This document shows positions 29,046-30,487 of a stretch of DNA of 64,000 nt, piece by piece. The stretch spans positions 1 through 64,000 of the forward strand of contig JBFRWD010000077.1 of the NCBI GenBank assembly GCA_051439425.1, given 5' to 3'. Origin of the DNA: Synechococcus sp. Its GTDB lineage: Bacteria > Cyanobacteriota > Cyanobacteriia > Thermostichales > PCC-7336. The notes below the pieces were generated by a model. It was not told the DNA's origin, made no database searches, and saw nothing but the letters and a program-made list of their open reading frames with translations. The translations under genes were made by a program, and so were the position numbers. How positions within the stretch are numbered: the first letter of the stretch is position 1; each line of letters opens with the position of its first letter.

Positions 29046-29257
29046 TCCGACTAATCACCAGTTTCGGGATATCACGCAGATAAAGCCATACAAACAGAAC
29101 GAAAATGTTCGTAAACTTTTCGCCTTTCTTCAGCCATGGGAAGTACTATTCAGATTATTCATCTTACTAAACATCGTTTGTAGGCGATTAGGCGGATGAG
29201 TTCCTCTTATTCACCCAAATGAGGACGTTAGGCGGAAAACTTCCTACTGATCAATAG

Positions 29258-30481
29258 TTAGGCAGCCCCAGAGCCAGCCTACGCATTAAAATTCAAAGAT
29301 TAGAAGAATTCTTATGACAGTACGTAGCATTACTCCAGAAGCGACCACCGAGCTGTTCGCGCAGCAAGTCATATCGCACCCTGAGCCGGGCGACCATCTC
29401 AAGAGTTACCCCGATGGCGTCGATAAGGGAAAGGACACGCCGGAGGCTGACGCCCCTGAGGGCGAGCACTTCGTCGTCCTGAGCAATCCGATTCCAGCAG
29501 ATCAACTGGACCCCGCGACTCCCTATGTCGTGAGGGATGTCTACGGTCGAGTGTTGTCTATCAATAATGCGGGGGCTGGCGACTGGGAGTGGGCGTACTT
29601 CGGTAAATATGCGAGCTATCCAAAGGACGTCTTGCCATTAACCTTTTCTGCCGACCCGACAAAGGGCTCCGCGATCTTGATTGCACAGAATGGTGGTCTG
29701 AGTTGGCCTTTACATGCGAATGGTAAAGCGACGTCATGGGAATGGACCTTCTGGGCGAAGTCTGGCTACGACAACGGTTATCCGGTGATGTCGTTGACGG
29801 CACGGCTCAGCCAGACGAATCCAGACGGTACGCAGTTTTACAAACTTACTTGGGACAACGCCGGTACAACCATGAGTCTATGCGCTGACTCGGGCGATTG
29901 GAATTGGCTGTACGTCTCCAGCAGCAAAGCCAGCGAGTTCACGTTCCACAAATTCTACGTCATAAAGGCTAAGGTCGACGAACTATTCAAAGCCACTTGG
30001 CCGAGTGCTTCATTCGTCTATTCGGCTTTCAATACCGGGGACGAGTTTTACGAAGCGATCACGGACGCAGCGGCCGGCCGGATCTACCAGAATTCAGGGT
30101 TACGTGGATACCAATGGAAGCCTGAGGTCTTTGACTGCGACGACTTCAGCTATGTCTACAAGGCGCAGGCATCGAAGGACGCCTATGCGAACGCTGCTGA
30201 GTACGGATACGCGGTCGGAGTGATCTTCGGAAGTACGCCGACGGGCGCTCACGCGGTCAACGTGTTTATTAGCCCAGCCGGCGAGGTCAGGATTCTAGAG
30301 CCACAGACCGGAGACATCGTAGCTGGGAAAGACTGGAAAAATGATGCAGGAGTGGCCTACTCTCCGTACTTTGTGTTGATGTAGTGAGTCATGCCAGCAC
30401 CCAAGATAGACCTTTCGTGCCGGAGCGCCGCCTAACAAATGCATGGAGCCGACCGCCGTCAGCGGCGGCTCATGCCGAGCG
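29258..30481 (+). mobile_element. Integron gene cassette (single, no intact intI in window)
   Basis: Starts at G|TTAGGC (29257-29263), one ORF, ends in an attC whose GCCTAAC is the exact complement of GTTAGGC. Confidence 0.82.
29314..30384 (+). CDS. MOA-related protein: tri-repeat N-domain plus agglutinin C-terminal papain-like cysteine protease domain
   Basis: IYQNSGLRGYQWKPEVFDCDDF...GVIFG...HAVNVF...ILEPQTG parallels the Cys/His/Glu domain of Marasmius oreades agglutinin; three DWEW/SWEW/DWNW repeats. Confidence 0.75.
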   Translation: MTVRSITPEATTELFAQQVISHPEPGDHLKSYPDGVDKGKDTPEADAPEGEHFVVLSNPIPADQLDPATPYVVRDVYGRVLSINNAGAGDWEWAYFGKYASYPKDVLPLTFSADPTKGSAILIAQNGGLSWPLHANGKATSWEWTFWAKSGYDNGYPVMSLTARLSQTNPDGTQFYKLTWDNAGTTMSLCADSGDWNWLYVSSSKASEFTFHKFYVIKAKVDELFKATWPSASFVYSAFNTGDEFYEAITDAAAGRIYQNSGLRGYQWKPEVFDCDDFSYVYKAQASKDAYANAAEYGYAVGVIFGSTPTGAHAVNVFISPAGEVRILEPQTGDIVAGKDWKNDAGVAYSPYFVLM

Positions 30482-30487
30482 TTAACT
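30430..30487 (+). other. attC recombination site (58 bp)
   Basis: GCCTAAC-AAAT-GCATGGAGCCG-A-CCGC-CGTCA-GCGG-CGGCTCATGC-CGAGC-GTTAACT: R'' and R' boxes, paired L arms with two unpaired bases. Confidence 0.88.

Follow-up and report, generated by a model that had tools for sequence, protein, structure and literature searches.

A MOA/PSL-type gene cassette at a probable orphan attI site of a decayed chromosomal integron in Synechococcus sp.

The attI1 site of class 1 integrons bears direct repeats to which the integrase binds. Integrons have also been published from Cyanobacteria (Nemergut et al., 2008, PMC2426708; Cury et al., 2016, PMC4889954), and the first of these sources reports that about one third of intI genes are pseudogenes and that over one fifth of the hosts have more than one intI. 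CALINs are described by Cury et al. (2016), according to whom attI is unknown for most integrons and is not searched for outside classes 1-3. SALINs and the insertion of cassettes at attG have been described by Loot et al. (10.1101/2022.09.11.507474), and version 2.0 of IntegronFinder has been presented as well (10.1101/2022.02.28.482270). A decayed sedentary integron or a SALIN is a known kind of element, and for integrons an ordinary state. Among the papers listed by our literature searches we found none on families of orphan attI sites, which is a weak indication at most.

The window analysed here is the 64,000 nt stretch at positions 1 to 64,000 of contig JBFRWD010000077.1 of Synechococcus sp. 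(assembly GCA_051439425.1). Between chlD, a core gene that encodes magnesium chelatase subunit D (26759..28771, + strand; TIGR02031, 690.9 bits, cut-off 499.55), and the convergent gene hypE (30710..31897, - strand; TIGR02124, 414.5 bits, cut-off 251.6), this DNA carries one open reading frame followed by an attC site. We consider it highly probable that this is a genuine integron cassette with a MOA/PSL-type gene, residing at the orphan attI of a decayed sedentary chromosomal integron. An integron integrase would have inserted the cassette, composed of one putatively promoterless ORF and its attC, by attI x attC recombination, and the landing site would have been the attI of a sedentary chromosomal integron downstream of chlD. 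This integron would later have lost intI up to about the start codon, leaving an orphan attI platform with a single cassette. At least five further platforms of the same family exist in the genome, each with its own cassette or cassettes and none with an intact intI in the assembly.

The locus resembles a SALIN or a CALIN (Cury et al., 2016, PMC4889954; Loot et al., 10.1101/2022.09.11.507474) in that a single attC accompanies a single ORF and intI is missing from the surroundings, and IntegronFinder run with a CALIN threshold of 1 would presumably report the site as a SALIN. It differs from both. CALINs have at least two attC sites without intI, whereas only one attC match is present in the 64 kb window, and a SALIN in the strict wording has no other att site nearby, whereas here an attI adjoins the cassette. 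The upstream site can be identified as an attI, which would make the locus a probable integron remnant rather than an attG insertion. A complete integron has intI beside the array, which is absent here, and attI at the head of the array, which is present as judged by homology and position. The locus also resembles sedentary chromosomal integrons whose intI has decayed (Nemergut et al., 2008, PMC2426708), with which it shares a chromosomal position beside a housekeeping gene, the decay of intI and the occurrence of several platforms per genome. Six platforms without intact intI in one assembly lie at the high end, however, and in the window intI would be wholly deleted while attI is kept.

At the junction between attI and cassette (29257..29263, + strand), G29257 is followed by TTAGGC (29258-29263), 57 bp ahead of the ATG at 29314; the crossover falls between G29257 and T29258, and the hexamer TTAGGC is complementary to the R'' of the same cassette. 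The single ORF (29314-30384) reads in array orientation. Beyond it lies a 58 bp attC (30430..30487, + strand), in which R'' GCCTAAC (30430-30436) fits the consensus inverse core RYYYAAC of integron cassettes and R' reads GTTAACT (30481-30487). They enclose a bulged L''/L' stem with arms GCATG(G)AGCCG(A)CCGC and GCGG-CGGCT-CATGC around a 5 nt loop. The unpaired G and A are both on the R''-side arm (the 5' arm of the top strand), with the bulge placed where the sister attC sites have it too. By the standard model of an integron cassette (Cury et al., 2016, PMC4889954) and the two crossovers at GTT, the mobile unit would measure 1224 bp (29258..30481, + strand), beginning with the first T past the crossover in attI and ending with the G of R'. 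When this G is joined to the first six bases of the cassette, the resulting GTTAGGC fits the consensus core GTTRRRY and is complementary to R'' at 7 of 7 positions; the final bases of the R' now in place derive from the old attI side. The cassette interior has a GC content of 0.52-0.57, against 0.44 at 29000-29299 and 0.39 at 30500-30799. The junction, the ORF, the attC with its second unpaired A, the regenerated R box of the circle and the AT-rich flanks had been noticed in a preliminary description made from the sequence, and each proved to lie where it had been placed.

Folding, pattern and covariance searches agree that the site is a canonical attC of the IntI type, as had been proposed. 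The bottom strand folds into the attC hairpin at -17.7 kcal/mol (z -2.38; 3 of 200 shuffled sequences equally good) and the top strand at -17.5 kcal/mol (z -2.63; 1 of 200). We wrote a strict attC grammar (CTAAC, spacer, stem, one-base bulge on the 5' arm, second stem, spacer, GTTA), which gave 8 matches on both strands of the 4.8 Mb genome, whereas the three shuffled genomes gave 2, 3 and 3. Of the 8, five are located downstream of attI-type modules, namely the window site and four sites on contigs C172 and C33. The remaining matches comprise one on C145 and the two strands of a near-perfect palindrome on C31. This 61 bp palindrome (C31:31794-31855) starts with CTAAC, ends with GTTAG and has no adjoining attI module.

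We took three attC sites of C33 and C172, and no sequence from the window, to build a covariance model (R1). MAFFT and RNAalifold had yielded no consensus structure for ten attC sites, and therefore the structure was set by hand on the three-sequence alignment. The seeds were chosen by eye from R-box patterns and the E-values of the model are rough; on these terms 30430-30487 (+ strand) was the best non-seed match among 6 matches in 116,603 bases (29.0 bits, E 2.1e-4), and it was the sole match in the 64 kb window at E up to 10. Rfam gave no match across 28700-30800 and has no family that fits the site. A second model derived from the first (R2) gave the window attC 44.9 bits in a search of the whole genome and recovered 8 attC sites there, among them a new one on C98 and a weak new one on C46. 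These are 8 of the 14 sites that we list; R2 misses C172_1, C172_2, C172_3, C172_6, C153_1 and C175_1, which are sites read by eye. Our first, crude R-box scan missed the window attC because its R' is GTTAACT. In congeners, R2 found two attC sites in G001, in the expected orientation beside a near-full-length intI, and one in G002. The weak match on C46 (C46:1203-1265, locus L022; 18 bits) is at the start of a contig that begins inside a cassette, and the neighbouring sequence resembles a cassette border on C172, which suggests that repeated cassettes break the assembly.

The preliminary description had called the cassette a lone one, and in this respect it needs revision. The 211 bp immediately upstream (29046..29256, + strand) form an attI-type platform common to five other loci that head cassettes, in a genome with at least 8 model-detected attC sites. 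When 28700-30700 was searched against its own genome by blastn, only 29046-29266 proved to be repeated, with copies on C172 (84% identity), C153 (79%), C33 (71%) and C175 (69%), and a sixth copy on C98. The six copies are alike as far as CAATAG|TTAG and no further; within about 20-115 bp of that point each continues with an ORF of its own. The module contains repeated TTAGGCGG-type motifs and ends in TACTGATCAATAG; in kin, this is the stretch between the intI start codon and the crossover.

The sister copies indicate what lies to the left of such a module. The copy on C172 runs into an intI remnant (TIGR02249 positions 1-91, 87.4 bits, 4 stops) that is 54-63% identical over 81 aa to the IntI of kin, and those on C153 and C33 retain DNA that resembles the start of this remnant. 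Of four module copies in congener G003, three have the same layout and two of these three retain intI-start sequence, and G001 has a module of like build (repeated TTAGGC-type motifs, then a core) between its near-full-length intI and the first cassette. Since sister copies adjoin intI remnants and end at the same crossover, we read 29046-29256 as the probable intI-to-attI stretch of an integron with the cassette at its crossover, an attI call made by homology and position. The similarity of the window module ends about where the intI start codon would be expected. We infer that the platform may be a working attI that carries the cassette promoter, its attI function again being judged from its relatives and its place; a simple sigma-70 scan, itself weak evidence, found no promoter-like site on the + strand upstream of the cassette ORF. 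The notion that the module is a mobile unit with a discrete left end was dropped, given that the copies in G003 and on C172, C153 and C33 continue into intI-start sequence.

Like the attI1 of class 1 integrons in its layout, the window module has several direct TTAGGCGG-type copies before its core and a G|TT crossover, and an integrase-binding role of these copies is putative. Direct repeats of this type (ATTAGGCGGA, GTTAGGCGGA and GTTAGGCAG) lie within 29186-29263. At the far end of the module (29051-29065) there is a core-like ACTAATCACCAGTTT, present on C172 too. Both the TTAGGCGG-type repeats and the core-like ACTAATCACCAGTTT are candidate accessory integrase-binding sites.

Circular cassettes predict that the 5' end of each cassette pairs with its own R'', and this is what was observed. 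We counted, for each cassette, the last two positions of the 5' heptamer, which are the variable ones. In 10 cassettes of six arrays, 15 of the 20 variable positions pair with the cassette's own R'', compared with 38% for mismatched partners. The contigs of the window's own source sequencing run diverge at 29262/29263 into the cassettes of C172 and C153. Three DNA sequencing runs, one of them the probable source, were available as contigs, which are blind to rare forms; in these we saw no joints, no excised circle and no empty attI.

No intact integrase accompanies the platform, as the preliminary description had said of this stretch, and the result extends to the assembled genome. In the assembly (96.17% complete, 182 contigs) no gene exceeds the cut-off of the intI family TIGR02249, and C77 has no match to this family at all; tblastn with two IntI proteins of kin likewise found no match in C77. 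Neither HMM nor tblastn searches detected a core or C-terminal fragment of intI in the assembly, the best other match being an Xer-like gene on C64 with 26-31% identity. Among 61 genomes (the source genome and its relatives), 27 have an intI over the family cut-off and many have fragments. A cassette in a chromosome of cyanobacterial type is hence no rarity, and integrons in Cyanobacteria have been reported before (PMC2426708, PMC4889954).

The filler between chlD and the module (28772..29045) has no detectable intI remnant and no paralogue; a six-frame tblastn against the same genome returned only the segment itself, and Pfam and NCBIfam held nothing credible for its frames. Some of these frames bear what we take to be a likeness to an IS5-type transposase.

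The want of a recognisable intI remnant in the window itself counts against the preferred reading. The most skeptical of the other accounts is that there is no cassette; the hairpin would then be a terminator of transcription or a palindrome that arose by chance, and the agreement of GTTAGGC with R'' a coincidence. The hairpin z-scores are indeed modest, and the GCCTAAC heptamer by itself occurs at chance frequency (6 in the 64 kb window versus 5.79 expected). Yet no T run follows the hairpin and the terminator scan does not list it, the site passes both R1 and the grammar scan, its R'' is fully complementary to the 5' end of the cassette, and the whole stands at a shared attI. We regard this account as scarcely credible. 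It is also very improbable that we are looking at a true SALIN, the lone cassette of the preliminary description, placed by an integrase at an ordinary genomic GTT (attG) with no platform involved. SALINs are common, attC x attG insertion has been demonstrated experimentally (10.1101/2022.09.11.507474), and the window has a single attC with no intI nearby; but the insertion point is the exact end of a 211 bp module that heads cassettes at five other loci, and an intI remnant adjoins this module at one of them.

With the preferred reading of a decayed integron, the cassette would now be immobile unless an integrase acts on it in trans. A working intI could reside on a plasmid, at a break between contigs or in the 4% or so of the genome that is not assembled, and could serve the six platforms in trans, so that the cassette is still mobile. 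Because arrays lie at contig ends (C98, C46, C172), an unassembled intI is conceivable in an assembly that is 96.17% complete; the six platforms hold six different first cassettes, R-box pairing is intact in most, and the window attC is undecayed. Against this, the assembly yields no core or C-terminal piece of the gene, the best other match being the Xer-like gene on C64, and in congeners, too, most copies of intI are broken. On balance we think a working integrase doubtful. A bolder idea, which we rate as unlikely, is that of a distributed integron, in which the six orphan attI platforms of this genome, like the four or more of a congener, would be scattered beside core genes and written in trans by one integrase that is encoded elsewhere or only transiently present. 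A second attI core copy (TACTAGTCAATAGTTA; 30536..30551, + strand) is located 48 bp past attC, a feature not expected from simple attI x attC insertion. Exact matches to the 16-mer pattern of TACTAGTCAATAGTTA number 5 in the genome; four of them end attI modules at the crossover, and the one remaining is the copy at 30536-30551. This count alone shows that the trailing core is not due to chance. None of the other five arrays has a trailing core copy within the sequence available, and local alignment of the 92 bp after attC to the modules did not score above shuffled controls. The trailing core may be the scar of an attI x attI exchange, which the distributed integron would place between platforms, or a decayed second platform.

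The gene carried by the cassette (29314..30384, + strand) encodes a 356 aa protein of MOA/PSL type, with a predicted beta-trefoil and a papain-like C-terminal domain. Pfam Agglutinin_C matches it at E 5.1e-21, and a profile of 25 homologues searched against the PDB retrieved PSL (3phz, E 1.2e-21) and MOA (2iho, E 7e-13). Its AlphaFold2 model has a pLDDT of 89.7; the top 10 Foldseek matches of this model are all PSL or MOA, followed by beta-trefoil proteins. Residues C275, H313 and E329 are nearly invariant among the homologues, with conserved Cys-His-Glu columns; for the comparison with MOA we used the residue numbers that we take to be those of its triad. The cargo has the domain arrangement and the Cys, His and Glu columns of the two fungal chimeric lectins, but it is only 16-23% identical to the solved chains and is longer by about 70 aa at the N-terminus. 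MOA and PSL are fungal, whereas this protein is bacterial and cassette-borne, and sugar binding together with protease activity can be predicted for it. We regard it as a predicted active lectin-protease.

Other phyla have homologues of the protein, those with 54-67% identity being from Paucibacter, Roseateles, Acidobacteria, Lentzea, Streptomyces and Cystobacter. Among 400 other genomes of the class there is no full-length homologue, and one genome has a 38% match to the C-terminal domain only. This distribution supports a probable horizontal origin of the cargo gene. A search for related loci with the single protein was empty, and an alignment query was needed to find them. At 23 homologue loci of other organisms neither R2 nor inspection by eye revealed an attC, and therefore the cargo gene is not known as a cassette elsewhere.

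The cassette had been described as recently captured and foreign. The distribution of homologues favours the second adjective; the first is unsupported because the codon usage of the gene is typical (52nd percentile of the genome's long ORFs, with GC3 at the 92nd percentile). It had also been pointed out that the cassette lacks HIP1 (GCGATCGC). The count is indeed zero, but this carries no weight as an argument for foreignness, since 35% of genome windows of the same size (1231 bp) have none either; for the window cassette the absence of HIP1 is by itself uninformative. The five arrays taken together (11.46 kb) have no HIP1 where 9.8 would be expected (P 5.5e-5). In addition, a tract of about 8 kb from 27888 to 36000, which includes the cassette, hypE and genes beyond, is without HIP1, the genome mean being 0.86 per kb.

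This locus illustrates that what software reports as a SALIN may be seated at an attI that can be recognised as such. By comparing paralogous platforms within one genome, attI sites outside classes 1-3 can be defined. The finding also yields specific attI and attC sites on which an IntI of the cyanobacterial type could be tested. A MOA-like lectin-protease, as predicted here, is added to the known cargo of cassettes. The general picture of how integrons work is unchanged.

A platform with a partly comparable chromosomal setting is present in the closed genome of congener G002. There, an intI remnant (model positions 1-99) with an attI-like module (C1:4251138-4251660; L057 4139-4660) is found 3.5 kb downstream of the chlD homologue, and an attC match follows at L057:8760-8845. 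The other neighbour genes, those for the ATPase and hypE, are 160-200 kb away in G002 and not syntenic, so that the adjacency of chlD and an integron in the two genomes gives no more than a hint that the position is old and shared.

What the sister arrays carry is typical cassette cargo. It includes two TIR proteins as well as GNAT, NAD-binding, alpha/beta hydrolase, pentapeptide, RelA_SpoT and deoxyribosyltransferase-like proteins, and 7 of the 16 ORFs have no Pfam family. The sixth attI module, on C98 (C98:42530-43690, L021), is followed by one cassette with a deoxyribosyltransferase-like gene and its attC, and the contig ends 114 bp past this attC. The gene upstream of this module is one that we take from its look to be hypB-like; the window platform lies beside hypE. 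The largest sister array (C172:4479-10999, L007; minus strand) has about eight cassettes behind its intI remnant, including those that encode TIR-domain and NAD(P)H-binding proteins.
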